Source: Zestosphaera tikiterensis (lineage in GTDB: Archaea; Thermoproteota; Thermoprotei_A; Sulfolobales; NBVN01). Taken from it: 28,453 nucleotides of DNA. The DNA lies in NCBI GenBank assembly GCA_003056265.1, contig NBVN01000009.1, positions 1-28,453 on the forward strand, given 5' to 3'. Positions 3,976 to 26,072 of this stretch are shown here, piece by piece (within the stretch, counting starts at the first letter, position 1; every line of letters starts with the position of its first letter). The notes beneath the pieces were generated by a model. It did no database searches, was not told the DNA's origin, and was given only the letters and a program-made list of their open reading frames with translations. Position numbers and translations under genes: made by a program.

Positions 3976-4006
3976 CTCCGTTAACGTATTCTACACGGGG
4001 GTTACG

Positions 4007-5515: not shown

Positions 5516-5526
5516 GACTTACCCCC

Positions 5527-6870: not shown

Positions 6871-7067
6871 GTAATATTAGAGGATACCTTAATAAACTTT
6901 ACGCATTAACAACGCCTAACTATCGATTAAAGACCTTCATTCTTCACGACTAAGACTGCGTCTACGCACTTCCCTGAAAGATATGCGTACCTATTGAGTT
7001 ACTGCTGACCTACTCAGTAAACCTGCAAAGCATTTAATGTTTAATAAGCTAGTTTTTACATTGAAAA

Positions 7068-8858: not shown

Positions 8859-9303
8859 GAGCTAAAACTCCGTAAGGACAGAAATCAACGCAATACCCGC
8901 AATGAACGCATATAACAGGTTTATTTGCGTAGACATCCCATTGAACGGCGTTGAAGGGGCATGCCTCCCTGCAATTCCCACAGCCTATACAGAGATTCGG
9001 GTTAAGTATGACTCCACCCCCGCTTCTAGGTATTAAGGCTTTAGTAGGGCATACCTTAGCACATGGCGGGTCTTTACACGCCCTACAAACTACAACTGTA
9101 AACCCTCTCTCAACCCCACCAACGCTCCTAACGTATATCGCAGTCCTACCTAATCCCCCTTCAGGAAATCTCCTAGCGCAAGCGAACATGCATGACATAC
9201 ACCCAACGCAGAGGTCAGGATCTGTAACCACTAACCTAACGTATTTACCGACTTGCTTAGTAGATGAGGACACACGCCCCAACCTCGTTATTTTAATATT
9301 CAT
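8842..9303 (-). CDS. 4x[4Fe-4S] ferredoxin-like electron-transfer subunit
   Basis: 153 aa with four Cys clusters: 'CVGCMSCMFAC', 'CRACKDPPCAKVC', 'CIGCGNCREAC', 'CVHCGYCVDFC'. Its 3' end overlaps the AOR start by 17 nt, which implies translational coupling. Confidence 0.8.
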   Translation of the reverse strand: MNIKITRLGRVSSSTKQVGKYVRLVVTDPDLCVGCMSCMFACARRFPEGGLGRTAIYVRSVGGVERGFTVVVCRACKDPPCAKVCPTKALIPRSGGGVILNPNLCIGCGNCREACPFNAVQWDVYANKPVICVHCGYCVDFCPYGVLALEEVA

Positions 9304-9331: not shown

Positions 9332-10069
9332 TTAAAGATGTTTTATTAACGTCCTATACTTGCTGATGTACTCTCTATTGCGTTCGCTACCCCCTGGAAC
9401 GTTAACGCTTGTCCACATCTCTGGAGCAATACCCTTCTCAAGAAGTTTCTCAGCAGCTCTAACATTCACCGCATGTAATATGAAGCTATTAACCATAGTT
9501 GATATGGGGAACGTCTTCACGTAGTCGTTAATTACGTAGGTAACGTCGCCTTCAGGGATTTTATTATCTATTACAACATCGGCGACTTCGTAAAGCCTCT
9601 TACCTAAGCTATTCTCAGGCTTTAAACTCATCGAATACTTCACTGAAGTTATCGCTACGACCTTAACGCCCCTCTCCTTAAAGGAATGAGCTAACTCCAC
9701 CGGGACGGCGTTCTTCCCCGAATTACTCACCACAACTAAGACGGAGTTAGGTAGTATCGGCGTCGATTCAACTAAGCTCTTCGCATAATTAGGAAGTTTC
9801 TCAAGTATAGATGCCCTAACAGCTGAAGGAACTCCTAAAAGCGAGAGATCTATGATTGGGTAAACCCTAACTAAACCGCCGGCTCTAAAGAAGACCTCAA
9901 GAGCTACTAGCATAGAATGACCTGTGCCAAACACATACTCAAACCCGCCCTTCTCTATCGCCTCAGCAACGTAGTCAGACGCCCGCTCTAAACTCTCCTC
10001 TCCCTCCTTAATCACTTTCTCCACGTGGTTGTGTAGTATATCGAATAGCTTACTGAATGTCTCAACCAC
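9332..10069 (-). CDS. SIS (sugar isomerase) domain protein, UPF0309-like
   Basis: 245 aa. 'VFGTGHSMLVALEVFFRAGGL' and 'VVVSNSGKNAVPVE' match the SIS phosphosugar-binding fold of the UPF0309 type. It lies only 28 bp upstream of the ferredoxin gene on the same strand. Confidence 0.65.
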   Translation of the reverse strand: MVETFSKLFDILHNHVEKVIKEGEESLERASDYVAEAIEKGGFEYVFGTGHSMLVALEVFFRAGGLVRVYPIIDLSLLGVPSAVRASILEKLPNYAKSLVESTPILPNSVLVVVSNSGKNAVPVELAHSFKERGVKVVAITSVKYSMSLKPENSLGKRLYEVADVVIDNKIPEGDVTYVINDYVKTFPISTMVNSFILHAVNVRAAEKLLEKGIAPEMWTSVNVPGGSERNREYISKYRTLIKHL

Positions 10070-10132: not shown

Positions 10133-11335
10133 TCATTGATAAGCTTTAAAATACCAAGGAATTAACTGAACGACTTTACCGAAGACCACATTAACCATTC
10201 TATCCGGGCTTATGGGAGGTATGTACTCACCCGCGGTTTGAACTCTCCTGCTGAGGTTAACGTTCTCACCTTTTGAATACCTAGCTATAGCGCGAATCTT
10301 ATTTAACGTAGGCTCAATCTCCTTAAGTAGCTTTCTATTAGTTAACGTTTCCTCTAAATGCTTAACCATCTCTAAAGCTTCTTCAGCGTTTCGCTCCGTT
10401 ACGGTTTCTTCGATAGGGTTTAGAAAAGATGCTTTATTAAATTCGAGAAACAGTGTGAACCAATACCTAGCGTTTTTATTGATTACATATCCTACTGAAT
10501 TCCTTAATGACGTGTTTGAATCGTAGCTTAACCCTTCATACAACATGTCAGCTACTGTATACAAAGGTATTTTAGAAGCTTCCGGCTGATTCGCTAAGTT
10601 AGCGATATACCCCGACACTAGCTTTCTTAAGTTGCCGGTTCTACCACCTATAGGTCCTAAGTGAAGTCTGTAAATACCGTTAACTATGAAGTAATCGTTA
10701 ACTGGGTAGTTATCCCATATGAGGGGTTTACGCTTTAAAACATTCGAAATAAGCTCTAAATCCTCATCACTTATGATTACCGGAGCTACCTTCATCCCGG
10801 TCCAGGCAATATCGACTTCTGGATAGACCCGCTCACCCAACTCCCTCATATAATCCTCTACGATGCCGTAGTAGTAGGTAGGGCATAAAAACATCCTCTT
10901 AGGTCTTAATTCACTAAATAGTTTATTAGTTAAGGTTGACTGAGCCTCAGCTAAAGTTTTAAACCCCTCACCTCTAAGTGCGGGTGGTATGTCATCTAGT
11001 AATAAGGCTATGGACTCAACTCCTAACTCCATAACCTTAGTGTATTTTCTTATGAGGAGGTTAACATCATCTCGTGAGGAGTAGTTTATGTCTAAACCAG
11101 GGCTTAAAGCGAACACCACCTCCACGCCGTATTTCCTACCCACGCGGATTAAGTCGGCCATCCTCGATAAATCCTCTGAAGGGTATGGAGCCCTCCACCA
11201 CTCTCTATGGTACGGATCCCACTTAGGTGCGTAGACGTAGGTGTTTAGTTGAATCCTACCCAGAAATTCAATAAGTGAGATTCGATCCATCCAATCAAAG
11301 TAGGGACCGTAGAAACCTTCAACCACACCAAACAT
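10133..11335 (-). CDS. GH84 beta-N-acetylglucosaminidase (O-GlcNAcase homologue)
   Basis: 400 aa. It is near-collinear with the O-GlcNAcase catalytic domain: 'GVVEGFYGP', 'LNTYVYAPKWDPYHR', 'ALSPGLDI', the catalytic pair in 'ALLLDDI', 'CPTYY', 'WTGMKV', 'LIWDNYPVNDY'. No signal peptide is evident. Confidence 0.85.
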   Translation of the reverse strand: MFGVVEGFYGPYFDWMDRISLIEFLGRIQLNTYVYAPKWDPYHREWWRAPYPSEDLSRMADLIRVGRKYGVEVVFALSPGLDINYSSRDDVNLLIRKYTKVMELGVESIALLLDDIPPALRGEGFKTLAEAQSTLTNKLFSELRPKRMFLCPTYYYGIVEDYMRELGERVYPEVDIAWTGMKVAPVIISDEDLELISNVLKRKPLIWDNYPVNDYFIVNGIYRLHLGPIGGRTGNLRKLVSGYIANLANQPEASKIPLYTVADMLYEGLSYDSNTSLRNSVGYVINKNARYWFTLFLEFNKASFLNPIEETVTERNAEEALEMVKHLEETLTNRKLLKEIEPTLNKIRAIARYSKGENVNLSRRVQTAGEYIPPISPDRMVNVVFGKVVQLIPWYFKAYQ

Positions 11336-11360: not shown

Positions 11361-12425
11361 TTAAGTCCCTACCGAACATTCCTTTACCACAGCACTTATT
11401 AAAGCATCACTTACGTAAGCATCCCCTAAAACCTTCTTCAACGCTATTAAAGCCGAAGCGCAAGACGCCCTCATAAGGCTTCCCCTAACTATTAACTCAC
11501 ACGCGCTGAACTTACGTTCTAAACACTTAATCAATAAAGACTTAACCAACTCCTTATTGCCTTCGAAAACCCCACCCACAACTGAAACCTCCGGACACTT
11601 CATGCCTAACGCTTCAGCAGCGGCAACTATCTGCTCCGAAAATAAGCAGATCTCCCCTTCGATTATCTCCCTAGCTAAGGCATCGCCCTCTTTAAAAGCG
11701 TTAAACACGTAAGGCGCTAAAGACGCTACCAATCCCTTAGGGTCTTTAGACCTATAAACCGTTGCGAGCACATCACTAACGCTTCTCGATCCCAACCTAC
11801 TTTCAAGGAGTTTATGAAGCGTGGAATGTCTGTCCCTACCCTCTAAAAACTTAAGGTATTCCCTTAAAGCGTAATTTCCTATCCTGTAAGCACTTCCTTC
11901 ATCACCGAGTAAATGCCCCCAACCACCGAACCTTACGTTCCTACCTTTATAAACCCCAAATACGCAACTACCCGTGCCTAAAACAGCTACTATACCATCG
12001 CCGAAAGCAAAAGACGCTACATGAGCTGCTAGAACATCTTCGAAAACGTGGACTTGACTTAAGTCCATATTTAGAGACTTCCCTACAAAACTCCTAACCA
12101 CTTCCTTACTTTCTTCGTTTATAACGCCCGCCATACCTACGCCTAAAGCAACGACCTCAACATCCTTTAAGTTATTGACGAGCTTCCTAACACCGTTAAC
12201 AACGTTTTTACAAGCTACTTTAACTGACGTGGCTGAAGGATTCGCAGGCTTTGAACTCAACAAACCTACTAACGACCCGCTGAGGTCTAAAGCAGCAATC
12301 TCTGTTTTTGAAGCACCAGCGTCAACACCTAAAACAACTTTCTTCAAAGCAGGTGAACACCGAAGATACTTTATCCACGGTTTTAAATATCGTTGACGTA
12401 ACATTCTTAACTTACGGTTAAGCAT
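11361..12425 (-). CDS. BadF/BadG/BcrA/BcrD-type ATPase; predicted N-acetylglucosamine (or MurNAc/GlcNAc) kinase
   Basis: Phosphate-1 motif 'VLGVDAGASKTE', then 'VLGTGS' and 'GGWGHLLGDEGSAY', typical of NAGK/BadF-type sugar kinases. The ORF-track N-terminus is probably over-extended. A TTG at 12347 (giving M-KKVVLGVDAG) has GGTG about 11 nt upstream and an ATATTTAAAA box at 12390-12381. Confidence 0.7.
   Translation of the reverse strand: MLNRKLRMLRQRYLKPWIKYLRCSPALKKVVLGVDAGASKTEIAALDLSGSLVGLLSSKPANPSATSVKVACKNVVNGVRKLVNNLKDVEVVALGVGMAGVINEESKEVVRSFVGKSLNMDLSQVHVFEDVLAAHVASFAFGDGIVAVLGTGSCVFGVYKGRNVRFGGWGHLLGDEGSAYRIGNYALREYLKFLEGRDRHSTLHKLLESRLGSRSVSDVLATVYRSKDPKGLVASLAPYVFNAFKEGDALAREIIEGEICLFSEQIVAAAEALGMKCPEVSVVGGVFEGNKELVKSLLIKCLERKFSACELIVRGSLMRASCASALIALKKVLGDAYVSDALISAVVKECSVGT
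12381..12390 (-). promoter_or_regulatory. TATA-like box for the kinase/GH84/SIS transcription unit
   Basis: ATATTTAAAA on the minus strand, about 38 nt upstream of the candidate TTG start at 12347. Confidence 0.3.
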
Positions 12426-12481: not shown

Positions 12482-13624
12482 ATGCGTGAGGTAAAGCACG
12501 TATGCGTGGATTTTAATGAGGATAGACTACATAGAGTCGAAAGCTTACTTAACACATACGTTAATCACGCGTTCCCAGGGGCGCATTTAACGGTCGTAAG
12601 CTGCGGCGACGTAGTTTTAGATGTGTTGCTAGGGTATGCCGAGATCACACCTTTAAGAAGGGGTTTAACACGTGATATGTTGTTTGATTTAGCGTCGTTA
12701 ACTAAGGTGTTGGTGACTTCCATAATCTACGGTAAGCTTGTTGAGGAAGGTTTAGTAAGCTTAAGACAGAAAGTTTCGGAGATAGTGCCTGAATTCGTTA
12801 AAACGGTTGCTGGAAGTAGTGAAATTAAGGAGAGGATAAGGCTTTGGATGCTTTTATCCCATGCCTCAGGTCTCCCACCTTGGATGCCGTTCTTTAAACT
12901 CGCTAATTCGAGGGAGGAGGTTTTCTCAGAAGCTGTTAAGGTTTTCCCGGCAAGCACGCCTGGAGAGGTTGTAACGTATAGTGACATAAACTATATAATA
13001 CTGACTTACATAGCTGAATTAATCACCGGTGAGAGGATAGATCGTCTATTCGAGAAATACGTGGTTAAAGCCCTAAACCTAAGGAGGACTTCATACAATC
13101 CTTTAACGCGTGGATTCAGTAAAGACGAAATAGTGGCTACTGAGGTTGACGAGAGACGCGGCGGTACGTTAGTAGGCGTTGTCCACGACGAAAACGCTTA
13201 CGTAATGAATGGCGTTTCAGGCCACGCAGGTCTTTTCTCATCTGTTGAGGACTCCGCAAAGCTGATTGTTGAGCTTATTAGATCTTACCGTGGTGAAAGC
13301 GACGCTCTACTCTCGCCAGTAATAACTCAAACTTTCCTAAGGCCTTGGGCATGCGACAGCAACCTATGCTACGGTATTGGATGGCGTGTCAACAGCCACG
13401 GTAAGGTAGACTTCGATCAGTTAACTGACTTGTGGGTTTCCACATCATTTAGCCATACGGGATTCACAGGTACTTCTATATGGTTTGCGCCTGAGTTGGA
13501 TCTAGCTATACTTCTATATACGAATAGAGTACATCCAAGTAGAGCTAATGAAGCGATAGTTAAGGTAAGGCCGTTAATACATAACGCCGTATTGTCTTCG
13601 ATTAAAGGCTTAAGAGGTGTTTAG
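12482..13624 (+). CDS. Beta-lactamase-fold serine hydrolase (class C / DD-peptidase / AmiE-like family)
   Basis: 380 aa. It has the S-x-x-K motif 'ASLTK', a second motif 'YSDINY' (usually Y-S-N), and a third motif 'SHTGFTGTS'. No signal peptide is evident. Its stop lies 2 nt before the anmK start. Confidence 0.75.
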   Translation: MREVKHVCVDFNEDRLHRVESLLNTYVNHAFPGAHLTVVSCGDVVLDVLLGYAEITPLRRGLTRDMLFDLASLTKVLVTSIIYGKLVEEGLVSLRQKVSEIVPEFVKTVAGSSEIKERIRLWMLLSHASGLPPWMPFFKLANSREEVFSEAVKVFPASTPGEVVTYSDINYIILTYIAELITGERIDRLFEKYVVKALNLRRTSYNPLTRGFSKDEIVATEVDERRGGTLVGVVHDENAYVMNGVSGHAGLFSSVEDSAKLIVELIRSYRGESDALLSPVITQTFLRPWACDSNLCYGIGWRVNSHGKVDFDQLTDLWVSTSFSHTGFTGTSIWFAPELDLAILLYTNRVHPSRANEAIVKVRPLIHNAVLSSIKGLRGV

Positions 13625-13626
13625 TA

Positions 13627-14832
13627 GTGAGCACCCTTAACAAACTGTCTGAAATCCTGCTTAAGGACAGGCGAGTGATGGTTGGCGCTATGTCTGGAAC
13701 TAGCGCCGACGGCGTTGACGTGATTTTGTTGGAGCTCGACGGTCATGGACAAAACATCAGATGGAGGGAGTTAGGCAAGTACTTCAAACCATACACTAAG
13801 GAGATTAAAAACGCCGTCTTAACGGCGTCTGAGAGGGGGTCAACACGTTTGGTTTGCTCTCTTAACGTTCGTGTGGGGATGTACTTCGGCATGGCTGTAA
13901 AGGAAGCTCTAGAGTACATTGGTATGACGACCGACGAGGTTGACGCTATAGGGTCTCACGGCCAGACAATATATCATATGCCGGAACTTACTTTCGATTT
14001 AGGTATTGGGACGCGATGCACCTTACAAATAGGTCATCCGTCAGTCATAGCTGAAGTTACTGGAATAACTACCGTAGGGGATTTCAGAATTAGGGATATA
14101 GCTGCCGGCGGTCATGGAGCACCCATAATAGCTTACGTTGATTGGGCGTTACTCTCAAGTAAGGCTACAGGTAGGTTAGTTCAAAACATAGGGGGTATTT
14201 CCAACGTGACTATACTGCCGCCTAACCCAAGCTTAGACGATGTAAAGGCTTTCGATATAGGCCCTGGCAACATGTTGATAGATCAAGCCGTGAGGATGTT
14301 ATACGGCGGTAGTTTAGAATACGACCCTAATGGAGAGATAGCATTAAGTGGTAGCGTCGACGAGAAGCTACTGAACGAGCTTATGGAACACCCATTCGTT
14401 AGGAAACCCCCACCTAAAACAGCTGGCAGGAGGGAATTCGGCTCCAGATGTTTAGCGCCCATACTGAAGAAAGCCCTTGAGAGAAACCTCGCTAAAGAAG
14501 ACGTAATAGCTACTTTAGCTATGTTTACGGTGAAAAGCATAATATATAACTACGATAAATACATCCTTTCAAAATACGGGAAGATCTTCTCTGAAGCCAT
14601 CGTAGGCGGTGGAGGCGTGCGGAATAAATTCATAATGAGGGAATTGACGAAAGAGCTTAAGATGAGAGGCATTAATGTCCTCACACATGAAGACTTAGGC
14701 ATAGACTCTAAATATAAAGAAGCATTAGGTATGGCTGTTCTAGCGCATGAAACACTCAGCGGAATCCCAAACAATGTAGTCGGAGCTACAGGAGCTAAGA
14801 AATACGTGATCATGGGAGTTATCTCCCCATAA
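13627..14832 (+). CDS. anmK: Anhydro-N-acetylmuramic acid kinase family protein (AnmK / levoglucosan kinase family)
   Basis: 401 aa. It aligns by eye along its whole length with E. coli AnmK: 'GAMSGTSADGVDV', 'IGSHGQTIYH', 'LQIG', 'VGDFRIRDIAAGGHGAP', 'NIGGISN', 'FDIGPGNMLID', 'PPPKTAGRREF', 'VGGGGVRN', and the C-terminal 'GATGA'. Alternative start at ATG 13678 (MVGAMSG). Confidence 0.85.
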   Translation: MSTLNKLSEILLKDRRVMVGAMSGTSADGVDVILLELDGHGQNIRWRELGKYFKPYTKEIKNAVLTASERGSTRLVCSLNVRVGMYFGMAVKEALEYIGMTTDEVDAIGSHGQTIYHMPELTFDLGIGTRCTLQIGHPSVIAEVTGITTVGDFRIRDIAAGGHGAPIIAYVDWALLSSKATGRLVQNIGGISNVTILPPNPSLDDVKAFDIGPGNMLIDQAVRMLYGGSLEYDPNGEIALSGSVDEKLLNELMEHPFVRKPPPKTAGRREFGSRCLAPILKKALERNLAKEDVIATLAMFTVKSIIYNYDKYILSKYGKIFSEAIVGGGGVRNKFIMRELTKELKMRGINVLTHEDLGIDSKYKEALGMAVLAHETLSGIPNNVVGATGAKKYVIMGVISP

Positions 14833-15043: not shown

Positions 15044-15889
15044 TTAATCTTCCAGCCTAAACCACGTTTTATTTAGCCTACCTTCATCAAAGTTTAGAAT
15101 TAAGCCTGACTGAAGAGGAACTTCATCAACGCGTCCTTCACTCCTTAAGTGTAACGCTAAAGTTGATGAAACCACAGCATATACGTTCCTACCTTCATAT
15201 TCGTAAAGCTTATAGTAATCAACCTCTTTAACGTTACCTAACCTACCTTTATTCAGGTATGACGTGACTACAGCAATTAAGCTCGACGTGTTGAAAGCTA
15301 ACGCTATTGTGTTTAACGCGGTTTTCGTGAATTTAACAGCCCTTCTGTAAGCGTTAATTAAGCTTTCCCGACTTAACTCACTTATCTGCGAGTATATGTA
15401 GGTTCCAAGCACGTACGTATCTGAAACATCTAAATTATCAAACTCCCTTAAGTTTAAAGCTTTAGTGAGTTCCTCCTTTAAAGCTGTTCCATTATGTACT
15501 AACCAATAATCAAATCCTCTCCCGCTGAAGTAAAATGGGTGTGCGTTAAAAGCGTTTTTAGAACCTATCGACGCCTTCCTTGAATGAAGGATTAACACGT
15601 AATTAAAACTGTCTTTAAGTACATCCAACAGTGAGTTAACCCCAGCTACATCCTTAAAGACTGGTTTAGAGGTTTTATAGCTTGCGATGCGAGCATCGCC
15701 TCCTTTACCATCCCAGCCTACAACTACATAACCCCAGCCGTCGTCATGAGAAGCACATCCCTCTTTACCCGTTAAGGACGCTAAGTACGGATCACATTCG
15801 CTTGATTTAATGAAAGCTTCAACAACCTCGTTAGGGTTTGAGGCATTGGAAGTTACGTTTAAACCTACGATTAAAGCTATCCTACACAT
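15044..15889 (-). CDS. Stand-alone class II (Ntn) glutamine amidotransferase-like protein (YafJ/EgtC type)
   Basis: I place the start at ATG 15889 so the mature protein begins 'MCRIALIVG', as Ntn-type GATases require Cys directly after Met. The ORF-track start at 15985 adds 32 aa and overlaps the HAD gene. 'HSRKAS', 'NAHPF' and 'VHNG' motifs are intact. Confidence 0.7.
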   Translation of the reverse strand: MCRIALIVGLNVTSNASNPNEVVEAFIKSSECDPYLASLTGKEGCASHDDGWGYVVVGWDGKGGDARIASYKTSKPVFKDVAGVNSLLDVLKDSFNYVLILHSRKASIGSKNAFNAHPFYFSGRGFDYWLVHNGTALKEELTKALNLREFDNLDVSDTYVLGTYIYSQISELSRESLINAYRRAVKFTKTALNTIALAFNTSSLIAVVTSYLNKGRLGNVKEVDYYKLYEYEGRNVYAVVSSTLALHLRSEGRVDEVPLQSGLILNFDEGRLNKTWFRLED

Positions 15890-15908: not shown

Positions 15909-16637
15909 CTACTTATTAAAACTTGAGCGTAACTTAAATAAAGCACTAGGTAATTGCTGCAGGTTCTCCACCACGTCGTCAGCAACTACTGAAGCGTCAA
16001 TACTTAATAACCTACGGTATGTGTCTTCATATATGGATCTCCATCTAAGGACATGTATGGCTTTAAACCCGAACGTCTTAGGGAAGTAAACGTCGAAAAC
16101 GTAACTGTCTCCAACGGTGATTAACTCACCGGAGCTATCACAGCATGAGTAGAAATTCCGACAGTTTTTAAGGCAGCCAACTCTGTCAGGACTTACTATA
16201 AGGTCGAAATACCTGTTTAAACCCGATTCCCTAATAACGCATTCCTGATACTTCATCAACCCATTCGTCGATAAAACCAGTTTATAACCTAAGTCTCTCA
16301 ACTTCTGAAGTACTTCATAAGCATTGTCAAGTATCTTAACTTCCTTACAGAAATGTTTGGAAAACCTACCCTCTATGTCTGCCTTATACCTAACTCCCAA
16401 CACCTTACTTACCTCATCAGCTATATAATCCCAATCGAAAGCCCTTGGGGTCGACATCTTAATTAAGTTTAAATGTATATTCATAGCTTGAGTAACAACG
16501 AATTCTTTAGTACGCCCGGATAACATAGCCAGCTCTTCATATGCTTTATTTATTAATGAAGATATCGGTGAAACCACCAACGTGTTGTCTAAGTCTATCA
16601 TCAACACGACTTCACTCAACTCACGCCAACACCGCAT
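15909..16637 (-). CDS. HAD-superfamily hydrolase (probable phosphatase)
   Basis: Motif I 'IDLDNTL', motif II 'LVLSTNG', motif IV 'VGDSYVFDV'. The start is more likely ATG 16601 (MIDLDNTL), since HAD motif I normally sits at the extreme N-terminus. Confidence 0.65.
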   Translation of the reverse strand: MRCWRELSEVVLMIDLDNTLVVSPISSLINKAYEELAMLSGRTKEFVVTQAMNIHLNLIKMSTPRAFDWDYIADEVSKVLGVRYKADIEGRFSKHFCKEVKILDNAYEVLQKLRDLGYKLVLSTNGLMKYQECVIRESGLNRYFDLIVSPDRVGCLKNCRNFYSCCDSSGELITVGDSYVFDVYFPKTFGFKAIHVLRWRSIYEDTYRRLLSIDASVVADDVVENLQQLPSALFKLRSSFNK

Positions 16638-16732: not shown

Positions 16733-17914
16733 ATGGGTTTAATACTTAGGCATGCCCACATAATAACGCCAACCCACGAAATACGGGACGGCTATATAGT
16801 TATTGATGAGAATGGAGACATAAGTGAGGTTGGTTGGGAACCTCTAAAGAATGAATTAGGATATGACGAACTATCCCTCGACGGTTATTTAGTTGGTCCT
16901 GGATTCATAGATACTCACATACATGGCTTTAAAGGTATAGACGTTATGAACGCGTCAGCAAGCGATATGGTTAAGTTAGCTAAGGAATTAACGACCCGCG
17001 GGGTCACGTCCTTCATACCAACTACTGTATCGGCTCCCCATGAAGACTTACTTAAGGTGTGTAGAGTCGTTAAAGAAGTTATGGGCTTCAACGACATCTA
17101 CGGAGCTAGGATTTTAGGCTTACATCTCGAGGGGCCCTACATAAACCCTGAAAAAGCTGGAGCGCACAATAAAGACTTTATACGTGACCCTAACGTAACC
17201 GAATTTAATCAATACCTCCTAGAGTCAGGGGGGTTTATAAGGGAGGTTACTATAGCTCCAGAGCTTCGAGGTAGTTTAGACTTCATAAAATACGTAAGTA
17301 GTAAGGGCGTGGTTGTTCAAGTAGGTCATACGGAAGCCTCATATGAAACCACTTTAAAAGCCATAGCTTACGGAGCTAGTAAAGCAACACATCTCTACAA
17401 CGCTATGGGGTCGATACATCATAGATCGCCTGGAGCTCCTATAGCCCTTCTATCATCTAAGGAAGTCTTCATAGAGTTGATAGCTGATTATATCCACGTA
17501 GCACCTGAAATGCTTAAGTTTACGATAGATTACGCAAGACATGATAGGGTGGTTTTAATTACGGACGCCATTTCAGCTGCGGGGTTAGGGGACGGTGATT
17601 ATCTACTGGGAGGTCTTGAAGTCGTTGTAAAGGACGGCATAGCTAGGTTGAAATCCACAGGAGCCTTAGCCGGGAGTACGTTAACTATGGATAAAGCGTT
17701 GAAGAACGTAAGGGCTTTAGGTTATAGTTTAGAACAGACCTTCACCATGCTTTCAACCACCCCAGCGAAATCCGTAGGCGCTGTATTTAAAGAGAGGGTA
17801 GGTCTTATAAAGCCCGGTTTCAAAGCAGATCTGGTAGTTTTGAATAACTCGTTAGATGTTGTTGCTACGTTCGTAAACGGCAACCTAATATATAAGGGAA
17901 TGTTGCCGGTTTAG
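16733..17914 (+). CDS. nagA: N-acetylglucosamine-6-phosphate deacetylase
   Basis: 393 aa. NagA blocks present: 'PGFIDTHIHG', 'LHLEGPYINPEKAGAH', 'VGHTEASY', 'THLYNAM', 'ELIADYIHV', 'LITDAISAAGL', 'GSTLTMD'. Confidence 0.85.
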   Translation: MGLILRHAHIITPTHEIRDGYIVIDENGDISEVGWEPLKNELGYDELSLDGYLVGPGFIDTHIHGFKGIDVMNASASDMVKLAKELTTRGVTSFIPTTVSAPHEDLLKVCRVVKEVMGFNDIYGARILGLHLEGPYINPEKAGAHNKDFIRDPNVTEFNQYLLESGGFIREVTIAPELRGSLDFIKYVSSKGVVVQVGHTEASYETTLKAIAYGASKATHLYNAMGSIHHRSPGAPIALLSSKEVFIELIADYIHVAPEMLKFTIDYARHDRVVLITDAISAAGLGDGDYLLGGLEVVVKDGIARLKSTGALAGSTLTMDKALKNVRALGYSLEQTFTMLSTTPAKSVGAVFKERVGLIKPGFKADLVVLNNSLDVVATFVNGNLIYKGMLPV

Positions 17915-17955
17915 CGGTCAAGCATTTATAACCTTCTCTAAACTACTTTAATAGC

Positions 17956-19791
17956 GTGATGATTGTGGGAGGCTTAATAGCTGTTAAATCAAAGAAGGGA
18001 ATTAACGCCATAGAGGCCTCTTTAGAGAGCCTTAAGAGAATGGAATTCCGTGGTAGGGATTCCAGCGGGTTGGCGTTCTTAATTCAAGGCAAGATAGAAG
18101 TGATTAAGGATGCCGTCCCTGTAGACATATTAAGCAAGTCTTACGACTTAAGCAGTTTTAAATCTGACGTAGTGTTAGGACATACCAGATATTCCACACA
18201 CGGTAAGGCCGATAAGGTGAACGCGCATCCACATATAGACTGTAGAGGGTCTGTAGCGGTGGTGGGTGACGGGGCTTTAATAAATTATGAGGACCTCCTG
18301 ACTAAATTGCTTAGTGAGAATCATTTAGTGAGGTCTAAATGCGATTTTGAGGTAGTGCCTCATTTAATAGAGTTTCTAACGGTTTCCGAAGGGTCTTCGT
18401 TATTAAAAGCTACTTTAGATGCGTTTAAGTTTTTAAGAGGTGTTTTCTCATTAGCTGCGTTGCTTTCCGACGGGCATATCGTAGCTTACACGAGTAAGCA
18501 ACCGCTTTACGTTGGTGAAGGTAATGAATTCACATCAATAGCTTCTACTAAGTCAGGTCTTTACGGGATAGCTGAGGTTTACACAACTCTTGAGGATGGT
18601 GAGGTATTGCTTCTAACGCCGGGAGGTGATATGAAGTTCGTTGATAGCGAGGGTCGGACAGTGTTTAAGGTTTTTAAACCGCTTGACTTAAGCCCTTCGT
18701 TGGTTAGTACGGATGGGTACCCCCACCACATGCTTAGGGAGGTTTATGAAATCCCCTACGCTATTTTAAGAACGTACTCAGCAGTGCAGAGGAAATACCT
18801 TGAGTTGGTGGGTAGGGTCTTAGCGCAAAGCGATAACGTATACGTAGTTGCTAACGGCACGAGCTTACATGCGGGTATGATATTCGCTTACTACCTCTCT
18901 GAGTTAGCTGGTAAGGTACCTATAGTCATCAGCGCTGCTGAGTTTCCATACTATTACGTAGATAAGGTGAAGGTTGGTGACGCTGTAATAGCTGTAAGTC
19001 AGTCTGGAGAGACTAGAGATGTTTTAAAATCGGCTTACGAGGCTAGACTACATGGAGCTACGGTAGTAGGTTTAACTAACAACATAAACTCAAGACTAAC
19101 TAGGTTCTCCAACATCTACTTACCTATAGGAGCTGGGCCTGAAATCTCAGTACCGGCTACTAAGACCTTCACCTCAACAGTTGTTTTACTGTATATGGTG
19201 GCGTTGGCTACGGCTTTAGCTTCTAAAACGTTAAGTTCTGAAGCCCTCGATAAAGTCTTCGAGGATTTAAGCAACCTATCGTCAACTCTACTAAGCGTTA
19301 TAGATAAGTTAAACGCCGTAGCTAAAGAGAAGGCTAAGTTAATAGCTGGTAAACGCAGTGGGTACGTAGTTTCTAGAGGTTTAACATACCCCCTAGCTTT
19401 AGAAGCAGCTTTAAAAATAAAGGAAGCTTCCTACATCCACGCCGAGGGGGTGCAGGGAGGGGAGCTTAGACACGGTCCTATATCAATACTCGATAAGGAT
19501 ATGTTCACGATATTTATAGAACCTCTTGAGGAGGACGCAGCGAGAGATATACATAAGTTAGCAAGTGAGGTTTTAGATTATGGAGCTTCAACGCTACTTA
19601 TAAGGTCTGAAGGTTTAGTGGACGTTAAGGAAGTCAACCTTGAAGTTATTGAAGTACCGAAATCCAGTAACAAACACCTAACGGTGATACCGCTCTCTCT
19701 AGCTGCGCAGTTGCTGTCTTACTGGATCGCAAACTACGTTGGATCACCTATAGACAAGCCTAGGAGGTTATTTAAAGTCGTCTCCAACTAA
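17956..19791 (+). CDS. GlmS-family protein (glutamine--fructose-6-phosphate aminotransferase-like) lacking the N-terminal catalytic cysteine
   Basis: 611 aa. The two-SIS isomerase half is intact ('SQSGETRD', 'LKIKEASYIHAEG..GGELRHGP', C-terminal 'DKPRRLFKV'). The glutaminase half retains 'RGRDSSG', 'GHTRYSTHG' and 'NAHPH'. However, the protein starts 'MMIVGG' rather than 'MCGI', and 'HNG' is replaced by 'GDG'. An in-frame TAA at 17929-17931 rules out an upstream Cys. Confidence 0.8.
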   Translation: MMIVGGLIAVKSKKGINAIEASLESLKRMEFRGRDSSGLAFLIQGKIEVIKDAVPVDILSKSYDLSSFKSDVVLGHTRYSTHGKADKVNAHPHIDCRGSVAVVGDGALINYEDLLTKLLSENHLVRSKCDFEVVPHLIEFLTVSEGSSLLKATLDAFKFLRGVFSLAALLSDGHIVAYTSKQPLYVGEGNEFTSIASTKSGLYGIAEVYTTLEDGEVLLLTPGGDMKFVDSEGRTVFKVFKPLDLSPSLVSTDGYPHHMLREVYEIPYAILRTYSAVQRKYLELVGRVLAQSDNVYVVANGTSLHAGMIFAYYLSELAGKVPIVISAAEFPYYYVDKVKVGDAVIAVSQSGETRDVLKSAYEARLHGATVVGLTNNINSRLTRFSNIYLPIGAGPEISVPATKTFTSTVVLLYMVALATALASKTLSSEALDKVFEDLSNLSSTLLSVIDKLNAVAKEKAKLIAGKRSGYVVSRGLTYPLALEAALKIKEASYIHAEGVQGGELRHGPISILDKDMFTIFIEPLEEDAARDIHKLASEVLDYGASTLLIRSEGLVDVKEVNLEVIEVPKSSNKHLTVIPLSLAAQLLSYWIANYVGSPIDKPRRLFKVVSN

Positions 19792-20596: not shown

Positions 20597-21373
20597 TTAA
20601 CGTTGATTGAAAGCAACGACAACCGCTTTTTCATCTTTAAGGATACGTACCCTCACACCATATACGGCATATATTACTTCCTCGGTTAAAGCCTCCTCAG
20701 GCGAGCCCATAGCATATACTTTACCGTCTTTCATCACTACCACCTTATCTGAATAGCGATATGCTAAGCTAAGGTCGTGAAGCGCCATTACTACTACGAG
20801 CCTTCTGTCTCTAGCTAGCTGTTTAATTAACTCAGCAACTTCAAGCTGGTAGTAAAGGTCTAAACTTGCTGTAGGTTCATCAAGTAGAAGTATGCGTGGT
20901 TCAACCACTAAAGCCCGCGCGATTAAAGCCCTCTGGAGCTCACCCCCGCTTAACTCCGTGATCTTCTTAAAGGCTTTTTCCTCAAGGTTTACTAACTTAA
21001 GCACTTCAAAAACCTTTCTGTGATCCTTACCACCCGGCATGAAAGCTATGTATGGCTTCCTACCCGACAGTACAAAATCAAATACTGTGAAGGGGTAAAG
21101 GTGCTCAAGCCTTTGAGGTACGTAACCAAAGAGCTTAGCTATCTCCTTCCTACCCATGCTACCTAAGGATTTCCCATCGACGTATACAGACCCACTTAAC
21201 GGTTTGAAGATCCCGTCAAGCGTTTTAAGTAATGTAGTTTTCCCTGAGCCGTTAGGCCCAACAACAGACACTACTTCACCCTCACGTGCTTCAAAAGTAA
21301 CGCCCTTCAACGCTTTAAAGCTTCCGTAACTAAATTCAACGTTACCTACCTTCAGCAACACCACGCCTACCAC
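20597..21373 (-). CDS. ABC transporter ATP-binding protein (FepC/FecE/BtuD type)
   Basis: Walker A 'GPNGSGKTT', signature 'LSGGELQR', Walker B 'LLLDEPT', H-loop 'ALHDL'. It overlaps the upstream permease gene. Confidence 0.85.
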   Translation of the reverse strand: MVGVVLLKVGNVEFSYGSFKALKGVTFEAREGEVVSVVGPNGSGKTTLLKTLDGIFKPLSGSVYVDGKSLGSMGRKEIAKLFGYVPQRLEHLYPFTVFDFVLSGRKPYIAFMPGGKDHRKVFEVLKLVNLEEKAFKKITELSGGELQRALIARALVVEPRILLLDEPTASLDLYYQLEVAELIKQLARDRRLVVVMALHDLSLAYRYSDKVVVMKDGKVYAMGSPEEALTEEVIYAVYGVRVRILKDEKAVVVAFNQR

Positions 21374-22406
21374 CTAAAAGCAAAGCTATCAGGAGGGGAA
21401 CCCCCACAAGAGTTGTGGTTATGCCGACAGGCAACGTCACAGGATTTAAAACAACACGGCCTAAGAAGTCAGCAGCTAACACTATCAAAGATCCGTAGAG
21501 GGTAGCGGCAAAAACGCTTCTACGGGTGTTCCAACCCACTGTAAGCCTAGCTGCGTGAGAAGCTAGAAGACCGGCAAAACCTATTACGCCAACTAAAGAT
21601 ACTGAAACCGCCGTGAACAAAGATGAGGTAAGTAAAGCTACGAACCTAACTACCTTAACGTTAACACCGCTTGAAACAGCTACCTCATCCCCTAACGATA
21701 TTAAGTCTAAGTCCATAGATAACGCTGTGAAGAGAATAGTAGCTGCTGAAGCTATTAGTAAAAGCAACCAAACATCGAACCAACTCACACGCCCTACATC
21801 GCCGAAAGTCCAGAAAAGCAACGTAGCCACCTGCACTTCGTTGAAGTATAGGTATTGAAGTAGTGAAAGAGCTGCTTGCGAAGCAAACGAAAGAGCTATG
21901 GAAGCTAGTATCACGGCATATATAGAAAGCCCTACCGAATAAGCTAGAAAGAGTATTAGAAAAGACTGTATAGTGGCTCCAGCAAAAGCTAATGCCGACA
22001 CTACGTAGGGATTCACCATAACGACGGTGGATGATGTCGCTGACCTAGGCCCGATAATCGATATAGCTCCAAAAGCCGTCATCGCCACCCCGACGCCGAG
22101 AGCCGCCGCGTGTTGTATGCCTAGCGTGAAAGGCGACGCTAACGGATTTCTTAAAACGTTCTGAAGCGCTATGGAAGACACTCCAAGGATCGCACCAACA
22201 GCTATTGAGGTTAACCCTCTACGTAATCTCATATCGATAACCACACGTAATGGGTCTTCAAGCATTCCCCGACTACCCATTACGTTAATTAAGTCTGTTA
22301 ACGAAACCTTATAAAACCCTCCGAAACTTAACGAAGCAAGGAAAAAAGCGAACACCGCAGTTAGGAGGAGTAAATATATGACGTTTATTCTCAACGCGTT
22401 ACTCAA
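21342..22406 (-). CDS. FecCD/BtuC-family ABC transporter permease
   Basis: 354 aa and polytopic. 'LRNPLASPFTLGIQHAAALG' and 'GVIGFAGLLASHAARL' are typical FecCD blocks. Confidence 0.85.
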   Translation of the reverse strand: MSNALRINVIYLLLLTAVFAFFLASLSFGGFYKVSLTDLINVMGSRGMLEDPLRVVIDMRLRRGLTSIAVGAILGVSSIALQNVLRNPLASPFTLGIQHAAALGVGVAMTAFGAISIIGPRSATSSTVVMVNPYVVSALAFAGATIQSFLILFLAYSVGLSIYAVILASIALSFASQAALSLLQYLYFNEVQVATLLFWTFGDVGRVSWFDVWLLLLIASAATILFTALSMDLDLISLGDEVAVSSGVNVKVVRFVALLTSSLFTAVSVSLVGVIGFAGLLASHAARLTVGWNTRRSVFAATLYGSLIVLAADFLGRVVLNPVTLPVGITTTLVGVPLLIALLLGGRRGVAEGR

Positions 22407-22417
22407 TATCTACACAC

Positions 22418-23572
22418 CTAGCTACACGTGAATAGATTCGAGAGATTTACGAAGCCTACGTACCCACCGTCAATAAATCCTTGATAGATTGACTTCCCAA
22501 CAAACATCTTAAATATTTCATCCGCTTTAGCTATTGGATCCACGTCTGAAAACCTTTCAGGGTATAAAACCTTCCCTATATAGTATGCATCTGCTAGAGC
22601 TACAGCAACGTTTGAATGATAGTAGTTAAAGGGTAGGAGGCCGTAAACACGTCCTTCCTTGAAAGCCTTTAAACTACAGTATTTCTGAGGTGATTTACTA
22701 AAGTCCTGCAAGACTGTGTTTAAGTTGTTCTCATCTATGAAGATTAGATCTGGTTGCTCGGCAAGCAAGTATTCGAAATCTAAGTTGATGAACCCGCTTG
22801 ATTTAGCTACGGCGTCAGCAACGCTTTTCGTTGAAAGCCACCATAACGGAGGGTATGGAGATTGCGTGGCTGTAAATGGTTGAGCACCTCTATATGAAAC
22901 CGCTCCGACAAAAACCTTAACGACTGATGTGTTCACGCCGTCTACCCTCCTACGTAAGTCATTCAGTATGGATTGAACGTAGCTTATGAGTTCTTCTGCT
23001 CTATCAACTCTATTTAAAGCCTTCCCAAGCAGTCTAAGTGCTTTATAGAAAGCCGTTAAGTCAGAGGACGTTACTGGTGAGTAATCTACGACTATTACGG
23101 GAGCTTCCACCTCCTGCTGTAACTTATCCGGGTCGTAGAATTGGACATAGGTAGAACTCATTATAACTAAGTCTGGTTTAACTGCTAGGATTAGCTCCGG
23201 ACTTGGCGGTTTTCCAGGACCTCCCGGCCCGATAACAGGTAAGTCTTTAAAGGTGTTTGAGAAAGCCATAGCGTAATCCCTACCTACGGGACTCCACTGC
23301 TTCTCAACTTCTTCAACGCCGGCAAGCAATGAGGTAGCGTTTAAATACGTTATAAGCCTTAACATCCCAGGACCTACCGCTACAACCTTACCAACGTTTT
23401 TAGGTATCTTAACTGTTCTGTTCGTGAAATCCGTTATAGTTACGTACGTTTCCTGAGCTTCAGACACGTTAGTAGTTGGTTGCTGACCTTGCTTAAATGT
23501 TAAAGTTATTAAAGCTGTTGAAGCCACTATTAAAGCGATAACGACTAACGTAAGCATGACCTGCCTACTCAA
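22418..23572 (-). CDS. Membrane-anchored periplasmic-binding-protein (FepB/BtuF class) substrate-binding component
   Basis: 384 aa with an N-terminal hydrophobic anchor 'LTLVVIALIVASTALITL'. 'PDLVIMS' and 'PDLIFID' are the cluster A/class III SBP hallmarks. It sits in an operon with the FecCD permease and ATPase. Confidence 0.75.
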   Translation of the reverse strand: MSRQVMLTLVVIALIVASTALITLTFKQGQQPTTNVSEAQETYVTITDFTNRTVKIPKNVGKVVAVGPGMLRLITYLNATSLLAGVEEVEKQWSPVGRDYAMAFSNTFKDLPVIGPGGPGKPPSPELILAVKPDLVIMSSTYVQFYDPDKLQQEVEAPVIVVDYSPVTSSDLTAFYKALRLLGKALNRVDRAEELISYVQSILNDLRRRVDGVNTSVVKVFVGAVSYRGAQPFTATQSPYPPLWWLSTKSVADAVAKSSGFINLDFEYLLAEQPDLIFIDENNLNTVLQDFSKSPQKYCSLKAFKEGRVYGLLPFNYYHSNVAVALADAYYIGKVLYPERFSDVDPIAKADEIFKMFVGKSIYQGFIDGGYVGFVNLSNLFTCS

Positions 23573-24258
23573 GTTTCAACACCTCCAACCTTAACAGGGT
23601 ATTTAAACGTTCTTTCAATCCCCCTCCCCACCACGGCTGAGGTTCCTACGCCGGCGCAGGCCGGACATAGGTAAGTACCGTTGACTACCACGGCTTTAGT
23701 AATCATTAATAACTCCCCGCATTTACCGCATCTAACGCTTTCGTATATACCAGCCCTCTCTATAGGCTCGACCTCAACCTCCTCTATCGTAAACTCCTCA
23801 ACGGGTAGGTTAGCCATCTTATAAGCTAACTCCTCCCACACCCTACTTAATTTCTCACGATCTTCAGGAGTTCCTTCACGTCTTCGAACAACCTTATCAA
23901 ATAGCTGCAGAGCTTCACTTGAGAAATACTTAGATCTAATCCTCTCTGAATCTACGTAAACCCGCACACCCCTCCATAAACCCCTCCTAACTAAAGTTAC
24001 GGCGTTCTTCCCTAAGTCCACGTAGATCAAGCTATTATTGCCTAAGGTGCAGCCAGTCGCTACCTGAACGCCGTCAACCAAACAATTATTTACCTCAACA
24101 ATAGCTAACAACTCCTCACCGACAGTTTCCTCCTCACCCGCCCTCAACACACCCAACCTCTCCATAGCTATTTCAGACATCCTTAAACCCAAAACAAGAA
24201 ACGGACATAGATGCCCGTGAAACCACCTCGCCTTCTCAATCAAAACCTTATCAACCAT
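23569..24258 (-). CDS. FmdE/FwdE-family protein with C-terminal zinc ribbon
   Basis: 229 aa. It has the 'FHGHLCPFLVLGLRM' FmdE signature, plus 'CGKCGE...CPAC'. There is a 4-nt overlap with the SBP gene. Confidence 0.75.
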   Translation of the reverse strand: MVDKVLIEKARWFHGHLCPFLVLGLRMSEIAMERLGVLRAGEEETVGEELLAIVEVNNCLVDGVQVATGCTLGNNSLIYVDLGKNAVTLVRRGLWRGVRVYVDSERIRSKYFSSEALQLFDKVVRRREGTPEDREKLSRVWEELAYKMANLPVEEFTIEEVEVEPIERAGIYESVRCGKCGELLMITKAVVVNGTYLCPACAGVGTSAVVGRGIERTFKYPVKVGGVET

Positions 24259-24441: not shown

Positions 24442-25464
24442 ATGTCGTCTATTATTCAATCGCATGAGGTTTTGGAAAGGCTTTACGACTTACTCTACGG
24501 TTTGCTTGAGTTAAGGGATAGGTTGAGGCAGTTAGGTCTTGAGGTGTTGCCGGGTGGGTTAAGCGATTCCATAACTTTAGGTAGTGTTAAAGTTAAGACT
24601 TCATTCATAGCTATGCTGCGGAGGGGTGTTATAATGGACGTCACTAGCGTTGAGCAGGCTCAAATAGCTGAGGACGCTGGTGCGGTAGGCGTTATGGTTT
24701 TAGATAAGCTGCCTTACGACGTTAGAAGGAGTGGAGGTGTTGCTAGAACCGCAGACTTGAAGGTTATAGAGGAGATAATGAGGAATACTTCAATACCTGT
24801 ATCAGCTAAGGTTAGGATAGGGCATTTCTACGAAGCGGTTTTGCTTGAGGAGGTAGGCGTTGATTTAATAGACGAGTCTGAAGTCTTAACCCCTGTCGAT
24901 GAAAAACACCATATCAATAAGTGGGTTTTCAAAACACCTTTCGTGAATGGCGCTCGAGAACTTTGCGAAGCTTTAAGAAGGATTTCCGAAGGTGCTTCGA
25001 TGATTAGATCGAAAGGTGAGGCGGGTACGGGCAACGTCGCTGAAGCCGTAAGGCATTTTAAAGAGATATACTCGGCGGTTAGGGATTTAACGGCTCACGC
25101 ACACGACGAGGAGTATCTAAGGGATTACGCCAGAAAATGTCAAGTACAGCATGACCTCGTGTTATTAACCGCTAAACTAGGTAGGGTGCCGGTAATAACG
25201 TACGCGGCAGGAGGTATAGCCACACCTGCCGACGCAGCTTTAATGATGTGGTTAGGAGCTGACGGCGTGTTTGTGGGCTCAGGCATATTCAAAAGTAAGG
25301 ACCCGGAAAACAGAGCTAAGGCGATAGTACTAGCTACCTCATTTTGGGACAACCCTGAAGTAGTTGTTGAAGCGCAGAAGATGGTTAGCGAGAAGGAAGC
25401 TATGTTAGGAATAGACGTTAAAACCCTCAAGCCTGAAGAGTTACTGCAGGTGAGGGGTTTATGA
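24442..25464 (+). CDS. pdxS: Pyridoxal 5'-phosphate synthase, lyase subunit PdxS
   Basis: 340 aa. PdxS blocks: '[41 protein letters not shown]', 'AKVRIGH', 'IDESEVLTP', 'KGEAGTGNV', '[30 protein letters not shown]'. Confidence 0.9.
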
Positions 25465-26072
25465 CTCGAATAGGGGTTTTAGCGCTTCAAGGAGATGTTG
25501 AAGAACACATATACGCTTTAATGAAGGCTTCAAAAACAAGTAATTTAAACGTTGAAGTCGTGGAGGTTAAGAAGCCATCGCAGTTAGATAGCATCGACGG
25601 CTTAGTAATCCCAGGAGGTGAGTCTACAACCATAAGGTACTTAGCCTCGTATATAGGGCTTACACCAAAGTTAAAAGCAAAGATAGAAGAGGGTATCCCA
25701 ACGCTGGCTACGTGCGCGGGTTTAGTAATACTAGCTAAGAAAGCAAGAGACGCCGTACTTAAAGAGCCGGAGCAGTCCTTACTAGGCGTTCTTAACGTGG
25801 AGGTTTTAAGAAACGCGTTCGGTAGGCAGAAAGACTCCTTTGAAACTAAACTGCTTGTTGAGGGGTTTGGAGAGGTTAAAGCTGTCTTTATCAGAGCACC
25901 TATAGTAACTGAAGTTTGGAATCCAGCTAAACCAATATCGAAGTTAAACCACCCTAAGTTAGGTGAGGTGATAGTTGCTGTAAAACAGGAAAACATTATA
26001 GGGCTAGCATTCCATCCAGAACTAACCACAACAGCGTTTCATGAATGGTTAATCAACGAAGCGATTAAATAA
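25461..26072 (+). CDS. pdxT: Pyridoxal 5'-phosphate synthase, glutaminase subunit PdxT
   Basis: 203 aa. '[13 protein letters not shown]', 'IPGGESTT', the catalytic 'TCAG', and 'FHPELT'. ATGA overlap with pdxS. Confidence 0.9.

Follow-up and report, generated by a model that had tools for sequence, protein, structure and literature searches.

What does a GlmS-like enzyme do when the cysteine nucleophile of its glutaminase domain is missing? The question is raised by a gene of the archaeon Zestosphaera tikiterensis, on a contig (NBVN01000009.1) whose 28,453 analyzed nucleotides are called the window throughout. The gene lies directly downstream of nagA (16733–17914, +; TIGR00221, 320 bits against a cutoff of 226), which encodes N-acetylglucosamine-6-phosphate (GlcNAc-6-P) deacetylase and is transcribed in the same direction, and its product resembles glucosamine-6-phosphate (GlcN-6-P) synthase, GlmS, over its full length. 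We propose that this Cys-less full-length paralog probably serves as the GlcN-6-P deaminase of the cell (the NagB step), with a noncatalytic N-terminal domain retained. The residue pattern, the family, its coexistence with canonical glmS, and its gene context were all observed directly.

Start Codon and Residue Signature of the Paralog

An open reading frame (ORF) is present at 17956–19791 (+), with the translation VMIVGGLIAVKS..., which reads V-M-I-V-G-G-L.... The frame is closed upstream by an in-frame TAA at 17929–17931, so that a Cys codon further upstream is impossible, as an earlier note on this DNA had pointed out. That note had also placed the start at 17956 (MMIVGG); its ORF stands, but the true start is almost certainly the GTG at 17965 (Met-Gly-Gly-Leu). 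This assignment was made because an 84%-identical orthologue in locus L007 has ATG-GGG-GGC where the window reads GTG(17965)-GGA-GGC, because L007 carries an in-frame TAG two codons before its start and, relative to the window, an upstream indel whose length is not divisible by three, and because M/V/L-G-G stands at or near the annotated start in nearly all of the best 120 homologs. The coding sequence, as defined by alignment with L007 and about 118 homologs, spans 17965–19791 (+) and encodes 608 residues (M-G-G-L-I-A...). With this start, the N terminus represents a Cys1-to-Gly substitution relative to the Met-Cys-Gly-Ile of GlmS rather than a two-residue "CG" deletion, and the gap to nagA, correctly described before as upstream on the same strand, becomes 50 nt instead of 41 nt. 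The same N terminus occurs in an independent 99%-identical assembly (P0001). A sequencing error, start indel, or frameshift was ruled out by P0001, the alignment with the 84% orthologue, and the family-wide M-G-G, and the same evidence excluded the possibility, raised earlier, that an indel masks a Cys codon at the start.

A protein search of 5.8 billion sequences gave 928 matches at E ≤ 1e-20, and the best 120 were aligned with Escherichia coli GlmS using MAFFT. Every full-length sequence among these 120 homologs (38–99% identity) carries the same set of changes. Residues were compared between 117 full-length Cys-less family members and 119 canonical GlmS proteins of Thermoprotei, and positions are given below in E. 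coli numbering unless the window is named. At the position of the Cys1 nucleophile the window has a Gly codon, GGA (17968–17970, +); all 117 family members have Gly here, and all 119 canonical enzymes have Cys. The oxyanion-hole motif His97-Asn98-Gly99 is replaced in the window by Gly-Asp-Gly (18265–18273, +; Gly101-Asp102-Gly103), which confirmed the earlier reading of "GDG" for "HNG." Asn98 is Asp in 116 of the 117 family members and Glu in the remaining one, versus Asn in all 119 canonical proteins, and His97 has become Gly, Met, or Glu. The claim that glutaminase activity is absent was thereby borne out across the family, since both Cys1 and Asn98 are missing from all ∼117 full-length homologs.

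The changes extend to elements that couple the domains of E. coli GlmS and form its ammonia channel, namely the Trp74 gate and the C-terminal tail. At 18187–18192 (+) the window encodes an Arg equivalent to Arg73, which is kept in 117/117 members, followed by Tyr in place of Trp74; this second position is Tyr or Phe in all 117 members and Trp in all 119 canonical proteins. Thr124 is mostly Phe in the family. The canonical tail PRNLAKTVTVE is invariant (119/119), whereas the family keeps only D596, P598, L601, and K603, and its tail is one or two residues shorter. In the window, the tail ..IDKPRRLFKVVSN (19759–19788, +) retains Lys604, is otherwise degenerate, and is one residue shorter than that of GlmS.

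The two-SIS isomerase domain (18712–19788, +) has an intact sugar-phosphate site. E. coli GlmS residues S303, S347-T352, K485, E488, H504, and K603 correspond to window S300, S345-T350, K484, E487, H503, and K604, and all of them are invariant across the family. The blocks that had been listed from the sequence alone (RGRDSSG, GHTRYSTHG, NAHPH, the Asp of KCDFEV, SQSGETRD, GGELRHGP, and the C-terminal Lys) proved to be conserved residue for residue with E. coli GlmS (PDB 4amv/3ooj). Family-specific changes are found around the sugar loop: I326S, Y/M390P, G398A/S, A400P, Q408T, and A496G. Judged by these residues, glutamine hydrolysis is permanently lost, and the fructose 6-phosphate (Fru-6-P)/GlcN-6-P ketol-isomerase site is complete.

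The protein matched E. coli GlmS over its full length (PDB 4amv, 3ooj, 2j6h, and 1jxa; E = 3.5e-71). AlphaFold2, run with a 47-sequence alignment, gave a predicted local distance difference test score (pLDDT) of 93.6 overall and 93–97 within the N-terminal domain, with values <50 at the four C-terminal residues. In the model, the first β-strand starts at residue 2, as in N-terminal nucleophile (Ntn) hydrolases. The best Foldseek matches in the PDB were full-length E. coli GlmS and human GFAT, and the isomerase domain gave TMt values of 0.86–0.91 to GlmS isomerase domains. The structure model and the Foldseek matches confirmed the predicted GlmS fold, and that fold only.

The N-terminal domain (17965–18684, +; Pfam GATase_6/7) is of the Ntn-type class II amidotransferase kind and free of a nucleophile. 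Dividing N-domain identity by C-domain identity gives 0.72 for the family and 0.985 for canonical GlmS, and columns conserved at ≥95% number 23/239 in the family versus 72/239 in canonical GlmS. Invariant N-domain residues include Gly1, Gly2, Gly27, Arg73, Gly78, Asn84, Pro87, Asp98, Gly99, Asp123, and Glu125. A dN/dS of 0.083 was obtained between the window and L007 over the N-terminal domain, and one of 0.084 over the isomerase domain. By these measures of sequence change, the N-terminal domain is relaxed and remodeled, and it is under purifying selection, not decaying. The domain had been called a dead or degenerate glutaminase; the loss of glutaminase stands, and mere degeneracy does not, in view of the dN/dS of 0.083 and the conserved columns. 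As far as the alignments tell, "dead" is correct for the glutaminase chemistry and wrong for the domain overall.

The Cys-less Family, Canonical GlmS, and nagA

The Cys-less clade was monophyletic in neighbor-joining trees (bootstraps 100/100), and this result held on the isomerase-domain columns alone. Its members come from Desulfurococcaceae, Ignisphaera, Thermofilum/Infirmifilum, Staphylothermus, Thermosphaera, Zestosphaera, Acidilobaceae, and "Sulfolobales" metagenome-assembled genomes (MAGs). When 1.84 billion cluster representatives were scanned in full with HMMER, canonical Cys/Asn enzymes made up 139 of the best 150 matches, and the scan added a few divergent Cys-less lineages with Pro400 (P0283, P0285, P0308, and P0329). 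Cys1 is absent from the divergent representatives P0283, P0285, P0308, P0329, and P0300 (MGGL, MGAL, MGGI, MGVL); position 98 is Glu, Thr, or Asp in divergent Cys-less representatives, most of which have Pro400, and P0300 keeps HNG and lacks Lys603. On the sequence evidence, the Cys-less paralog is a sizeable monophyletic family and not a singular oddity, and databases call it GlmS. Both NCBI and UniRef name the two paralogs "glutamine--fructose-6-phosphate transaminase." The window protein passes the NCBIfam glmS equivalog TIGR01135 marginally (436.4 bits against a cutoff of 418.05), and it is this narrow pass that leads pipelines to call it GlmS. No Cys-less full-length GlmS paralog was described in the full-text literature searched, which is absence of evidence and not proof.

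A profile of canonical Thermoprotei GlmS was built from the loci of a contig scan with the window protein; that scan had used NAHPHIDC, which is common to canonical GlmS, so only L010 among its loci belongs to the family and the canonical loci provided the control set. The profile retrieved 120 proteins, 118 of which have CGI or CGV after M/L/V/A at or near the start. On the 221-kb contig JANXDZ010000003.1, canonical glmS is directly followed by a GlmU-like gene (NTP_transferase and Hexapep), and the Cys-less gene lies ∼20 kb away beside NagA-like amidohydrolase, SIS_2, SIS-only, and PtsI-like genes. The complete 1.91-Mb genome CP072660.1 has a canonical glmS → glmU-like pair at 0.10 Mb and, at 1.70 Mb, the arrangement SIS_2(−) | nagA(+) → Cys-less gene with a 30-nt gap. 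Both proteins are also carried by three Desulfurococcus amylolyticus genomes (in strain 1221n, ACL11724.1 and ACL11784.1), and one Staphylothermus MAG carries both GlmS types. The view that the gene is a paralog of GlmS was thus upheld, with relatives holding the Cys-less type plus a canonical Cys1 glmS adjoining a glmU-like gene. The Cys-less form as the sole, biosynthetic GlmS of these archaea was dismissed, since canonical Cys1 GlmS occurs in the same genomes.

A metagenome scan with the family N-domain alignment gave 64 more loci, and the window neighbors were run against all loci by tblastn. A nagA homolog and the Cys-less gene are no more than 500 nt apart in 16/64 family loci and no more than 3 kb apart in 19, and none of the 54 canonical glmS loci has nagA nearby (Fisher's exact test, p = 2e-5, for loci that are phylogenetically non-independent). 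Among the 31 loci left unclassified, none that looks canonical has nagA nearby, and the only one with a nagA neighbor, L124, is a truncated family member. At least three deep subclades show the linkage, which takes two forms: nagA lies either upstream and co-directional or downstream and convergent. The order nagA-then-paralog is kept in L007, L116, L120, L156, and others, and the gap between the two genes is 3–30 nt in L116, L120, and L156. In L116 and L120, the arrangement is ptsI(−) | nagA → paralog (3–7-nt gaps) → phosphotransferase system (PTS) IIB → EIIC, with HPr and a SIS_2 gene nearby. A NagS-like SIS_2 gene co-occurs in L007, L091, L110, L113, L120, L122, L127, L138, L140, L143, and L156. 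The suggestion that the paralog is a likely substitute for NagB therefore gained support, its adjacency to nagA being specific to the clade (16/64 versus 0/54) and recurring in three deep subclades with NagS-like SIS or PTS genes.

The PTS stretches (L116, 4979–14999; L120, 3900–9830), which come from uncultured Thermoprotei and hold a full PTS, encode Enzyme I, HPr, IIB, and two EIIC-GAT permeases of the ascorbate/galactitol family. Creatininase-family and phosphotriesterase-family genes also lie in these loci, and L120 contains glutamine synthetase as well. A few kilobases from the paralog, Ignisphaera aggregans (L003, 15078–15974) and Desulfurococcus amylolyticus (L005, 3244–4086) have short NAD synthetase genes of one domain (PF02540), for which no glutaminase domain was listed; these enzymes are possibly ammonia-dependent, and their proximity may be coincidence.

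Function of the Paralog and Competing Explanations

We infer the following on which way the reaction runs and on what the N-terminal domain contributes. NagA would deacetylate GlcNAc-6-P ahead of the paralog. His503 of the SIS domain would then open the ring of GlcN-6-P, Glu487 would transfer the proton between C2 and C1 to give fructosimine 6-phosphate, and Lys604 together with water would release Fru-6-P and NH3. Because no glutamine hydrolysis would be available to drive synthesis, the reaction would run catabolically, and the separate canonical glmS-glmU pair would make UDP-N-acetylglucosamine (UDP-GlcNAc). The N-terminal Ntn-like domain would be retained as a folded, selected module, a lid or scaffold that may also sense a ligand. 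No NagB-I or GlmD was found in the window cluster by Pfam and NCBIfam scans, and PF01182 (Glucosamine_iso) matched neither the paralog nor any ORF in the Pfam scan, which covered 29 ORFs of the window.

GlmS/GFAT (EC 2.6.1.16) has the same two-domain architecture and length as the paralog and identical isomerase catalytic and phosphate-binding residues, and in the N-terminal domain the paralog retains Arg26, Asp29, Arg73, Asn84, Asp123, and Glu125. It differs at Cys1 (Gly), Asn98 (Asp), His97 (Gly), and Trp74 (Tyr/Phe) and in its degenerate, shorter C-terminal tail, forms a separate clade, and adjoins nagA rather than glmU or glmM. Because Cys1, Asn98, and the channel and tail features are lacking, we do not file the paralog as GlmS enzymatically.

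NagB-II of Shewanella and GlmD of Thermococcus kodakarensis are likewise derived from the GlmS isomerase, share the Ser/Ser/Glu/His site and the linkage to nagA and amino-sugar uptake, and, as predicted from sequence, the reaction. Ser303/Ser347/Glu488/His504 (GFAT numbering) make up the active-site set of the SIS-type deaminase NagB-II (PMC10201695); window S300, S345, E487, and H503 match this set and are invariant in the family. However, NagB-II and GlmD have about 330 residues in two SIS domains and no N-terminal domain, whereas the paralog has 608 residues and a selected Ntn-like domain. When it was compared with GlmS, GlmD, and NagB-II, a check along the lines of one suggested before, the full-length match was to GlmS, and the scores against the NagB_SO3506 equivalog (124 bits, cutoff 430) and GlmD (70 bits, cutoff 580) were far below the cutoffs. 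The paralog is proposed to work like NagB-II/GlmD, yet by architecture and scores it is placed outside that group.

The nearest precedent in kind is PurF′, a Cys-less paralog of PurF in Crenarchaeota that coexists with PurF and is functionally uncharacterized (Brown et al. 2011, PMC3261824). It too is a class II (Ntn) amidotransferase paralog of the same archaeal phylum that has no N-terminal Cys and coexists with the Cys-bearing enzyme. PurF′ differs in belonging to another amidotransferase family, with an acceptor domain that binds phosphoribosyl pyrophosphate, and in having Ala or Val at position 1. Its context is biosynthetic, and that of the Cys-less GlmS paralog is catabolic; because PurF′ lies among biosynthetic genes, an ammonia-dependent biosynthetic role was proposed for it (PMC3261824). 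NagB-I (PF01182), the classical GlcN-6-P deaminase, acts at the step proposed for the paralog, downstream of NagA, with an unrelated fold and no sequence similarity. β-Lactam and carbapenam synthetases, a further precedent, are AsnB-derived, full-length proteins with a folded N-terminal domain that lacks the Cys nucleophile, and only their C-terminal domain is catalytic; they differ from the paralog in parent family and chemistry and serve secondary metabolism, not amino-sugar catabolism.

If the deaminase assignment is correct, the paralog would be a third architecture for the NagB step, besides NagB-I and the SIS-only NagB-II/GlmD. NCBI and UniRef give both paralogs one name, an annotation error that is systematic, and metabolic reconstructions of Desulfurococcaceae, Ignisphaera, Thermofilum-like archaea, and many hot-spring MAGs may therefore miss amino-sugar catabolism, and they may count two synthases. 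Taken with PurF/PurF′, the family points to a recurrent event in Crenarchaeota, in which a class II amidotransferase is duplicated and one of the two copies loses its nucleophile.

Several observations weigh against the deaminase assignment. About three quarters of the family loci have no nagA nearby, and the loci behind the adjacency count lack phylogenetic independence. The closest sister clade (53–56% identity, 14 loci) is always in a housekeeping context beside a YchF-type GTPase, and no amino-sugar genes adjoin the Cys-less gene in the Ignisphaera aggregans and D. amylolyticus loci. In L091 and L127, a further gene next to nagA encodes a SIS-only protein like the GlmS isomerase, which could be the deaminase there, so that these loci have two candidates for the reaction. 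The coexistence data leave out the genome of the window itself, Ignisphaera, and the clade with YchF neighbors. Finally, invariant Gly1, Asp98, Arg73, Asp123, and Glu125 and a dN/dS of 0.08 exceed what a passive scaffold needs.

Some details of these loci deserve mention in their own right. In all 14 loci of the sister clade, the YchF-type GTPase and DNA polymerase B genes precede the paralog; the synteny is stable, and amino-sugar genes are absent. A Glucodextran_C gene (PF09985) follows the paralog in part of this clade (L001, 11907–12959; L008, L095, L099, and L149). The SIS-only protein of L091 (10006–11085, −), also present in L127, has 359 residues, lies near the GlmS isomerase domain and GlmD, and scores 129 bits against the GlmD cutoff of 580.

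A further reading of the N-terminal domain, which we hold only tentatively and consider rather doubtful, is that the remodeled Ntn pocket, with Gly1 and (in 116/117 members) Asp98 fixed and Arg73, Asp123, and Glu125 kept, is a working ligand site and not a relic. Such a pocket might exert allosteric control over the isomerase/deaminase site by binding NH4+, glutamine, or a different amino acid, and amino-sugar breakdown would then be tied to nitrogen status. Another possibility is that the pocket catalyzes a new type of amide or amine transfer that needs no cysteine. Arg73 and Asp123 of E. coli GlmS bind the α-carboxylate and α-amino groups of glutamine. In both cases the domain would be a "pseudo-amidotransferase" sensor, fused to a central metabolic enzyme and kept across many Thermoprotei lineages. 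The concerted Gly1/Asp98 signature poses the clean question of what role a nucleophile-less Ntn pocket has.

The housekeeping neighborhoods without nagA in which many members lie would also suit an ammonium-dependent, freely reversible GlcN-6-P synthase that acts on Fru-6-P and NH4+ in ammonium-rich settings, such as those of peptide-fermenting thermophiles. On this explanation, Asp98 and the α-amine of Gly1 would capture and deprotonate ammonium at the mouth of the former channel, and the Asn-to-Asp change does set a carboxylate where the amide of glutamine would be. The Cys-less PurF′ of Crenarchaeota has been proposed to be ammonia-dependent, and Cys1 mutants of class II amidotransferases retain NH3-dependent activity (PMC3261824). 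We nevertheless consider this explanation unlikely. In every case that could be checked, a canonical glmS-glmU pair accompanies the paralog, so that a second synthase would be unneeded, the adjacency to nagA is specific to the Cys-less clade, and neither the Trp74 gate nor the channel-forming C-terminal tail is conserved.

The deaminase assignment presupposes GlcN-6-P as the substrate. An isomerase-deaminase for another amino-sugar phosphate, such as galactosamine 6-phosphate, mannosamine 6-phosphate, the product of a NagS/NagA branch, or an Amadori-type compound (compare FrlB/AgaS), would account for the family-specific changes G398A/S, A400P, Q408T, I326S, and Y/M390P in and around the sugar-binding loop. 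It would also fit the recurrence of a NagS-like SIS_2 gene as a neighbor, the membership of the associated PTS IIC in the ascorbate/galactitol (EIIC-GAT) family and not the GlcNAc type, and the creatininase-family and phosphotriesterase-family genes of L116. Yet all GlmS residues for contact with Fru-6-P/GlcN-6-P and for catalysis are invariant, the partner gene scores above the nagA equivalog cutoff, and the window cluster is a plain GlcNAc/N-acetylmuramic acid (MurNAc) set, and we regard another substrate as quite improbable.

That the paralog is still a glutamine-dependent GlcN-6-P synthase, working by a non-Cys mechanism or with a separate glutaminase such as the protein encoded at 15044–15889, is very hard to sustain. 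The glutamine-binding residues Arg73 and Asp123 are invariant, and a Cys1-bearing YafJ-like protein is encoded 2 kb away. Against this, position 1 has no nucleophile in any member, the channel elements are degenerate, and of about 66 loci only the window and L007 have the stand-alone amidotransferase; GlmS function requires Cys1 (PMC11822699). A sequencing or assembly artifact or a decaying glmS pseudogene, for which nothing but the unusual N terminus speaks, can be dismissed as next to impossible given the same N terminus at 99% and 84% identity in independent assemblies and in ∼117 homologs, the intact reading frame, the dN/dS of 0.085, and the confident AlphaFold2 model.

Neighboring Genes in the Window

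Upstream of the paralog, a TATA-box-like TTTATAA at 17925–17931 (+), ∼35 nt before the start, holds the in-frame TAA and is read from the sequence as a predicted promoter. An A/T-rich element lies at the matching place in L007. The TTTATAA may allow the paralog to be transcribed independently as well as by read-through from nagA.

The genes between 9332 and 17914 resemble a bacterial muropeptide/GlcNAc recycling set, in which no MurQ etherase was recognized, and the cluster is kept gene for gene in L007 at 70–86% identity. It begins with a SIS_2/UPF0309 homolog of Streptomyces NagS, the GlcNAc-6-P dehydratase (9332–10069, −; PF13580; NF002805, 260 bits; PDB 9eol (SCO4393), E = 7.5e-37). The reaction of NagS has been described as limited to Streptomycetaceae (PMC12680351). 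Archaeal homologs show linkage with nagA in at least 11 loci and, to judge from their sequences, may catalyze the same dehydration. Next on the minus strand are a GH84-type β-N-acetylglucosaminidase (10133–11335, −; PF07555, E = 4e-84), kept in L007, and a BadF/BcrAD-type, NagK-like sugar kinase (11361–12425, −; PF01869; NagK_SO3507, 99 bits, below the cutoff). On the plus strand are a PBP4B-like serine hydrolase of the β-lactamase fold (12482–13624, +; PF00144; NF002968 PBP4B, 191 bits, below the cutoff) and AnmK, anhydro-N-acetylmuramic acid kinase (13627–14832, +; PF03702, E = 3e-94; NF007148, 414 bits against a cutoff of 387). AnmK, the PBP4B-like hydrolase, GH84, the NagK-like kinase, and NagA hint at archaeal feeding on bacterial cell-wall fragments.

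Between AnmK and nagA lie two genes on the minus strand. One encodes a stand-alone class II amidotransferase-like protein with an intact Cys1 (MCRIALIVG...) and VHNGT (15044–15889, −; Pfam GATase_6/GATase_4). It is a YafJ/GATase_4-like protein of about 281 residues with no NCBIfam match, and its mechanically called ORF reaches 15985, overlapping the next gene. It was dismissed as a general trans-acting glutaminase partner because only the window and L007 have it. The other is a HAD-family hydrolase gene (15909–16637, −; PF00702/PF13419), divergent from nagA and kept in L007.

No tRNA gene and no Rfam family was detected when the window was scanned for them. The left part of the window (1–8858) includes thiM/thiE-like genes at 11–1464, an AIR-synthase-related gene, a flavin reductase, an M24 peptidase, and a DUF438-hemerythrin-PAS protein (5527–6870), and an aldehyde:ferredoxin oxidoreductase with a 4Fe-4S protein lies at 7068–9303. 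Downstream of the paralog, an iron/B12-type ABC transporter with an FmdE-like gene is encoded at 20597–24258, followed by pdxS/pdxT at 24442–26072.

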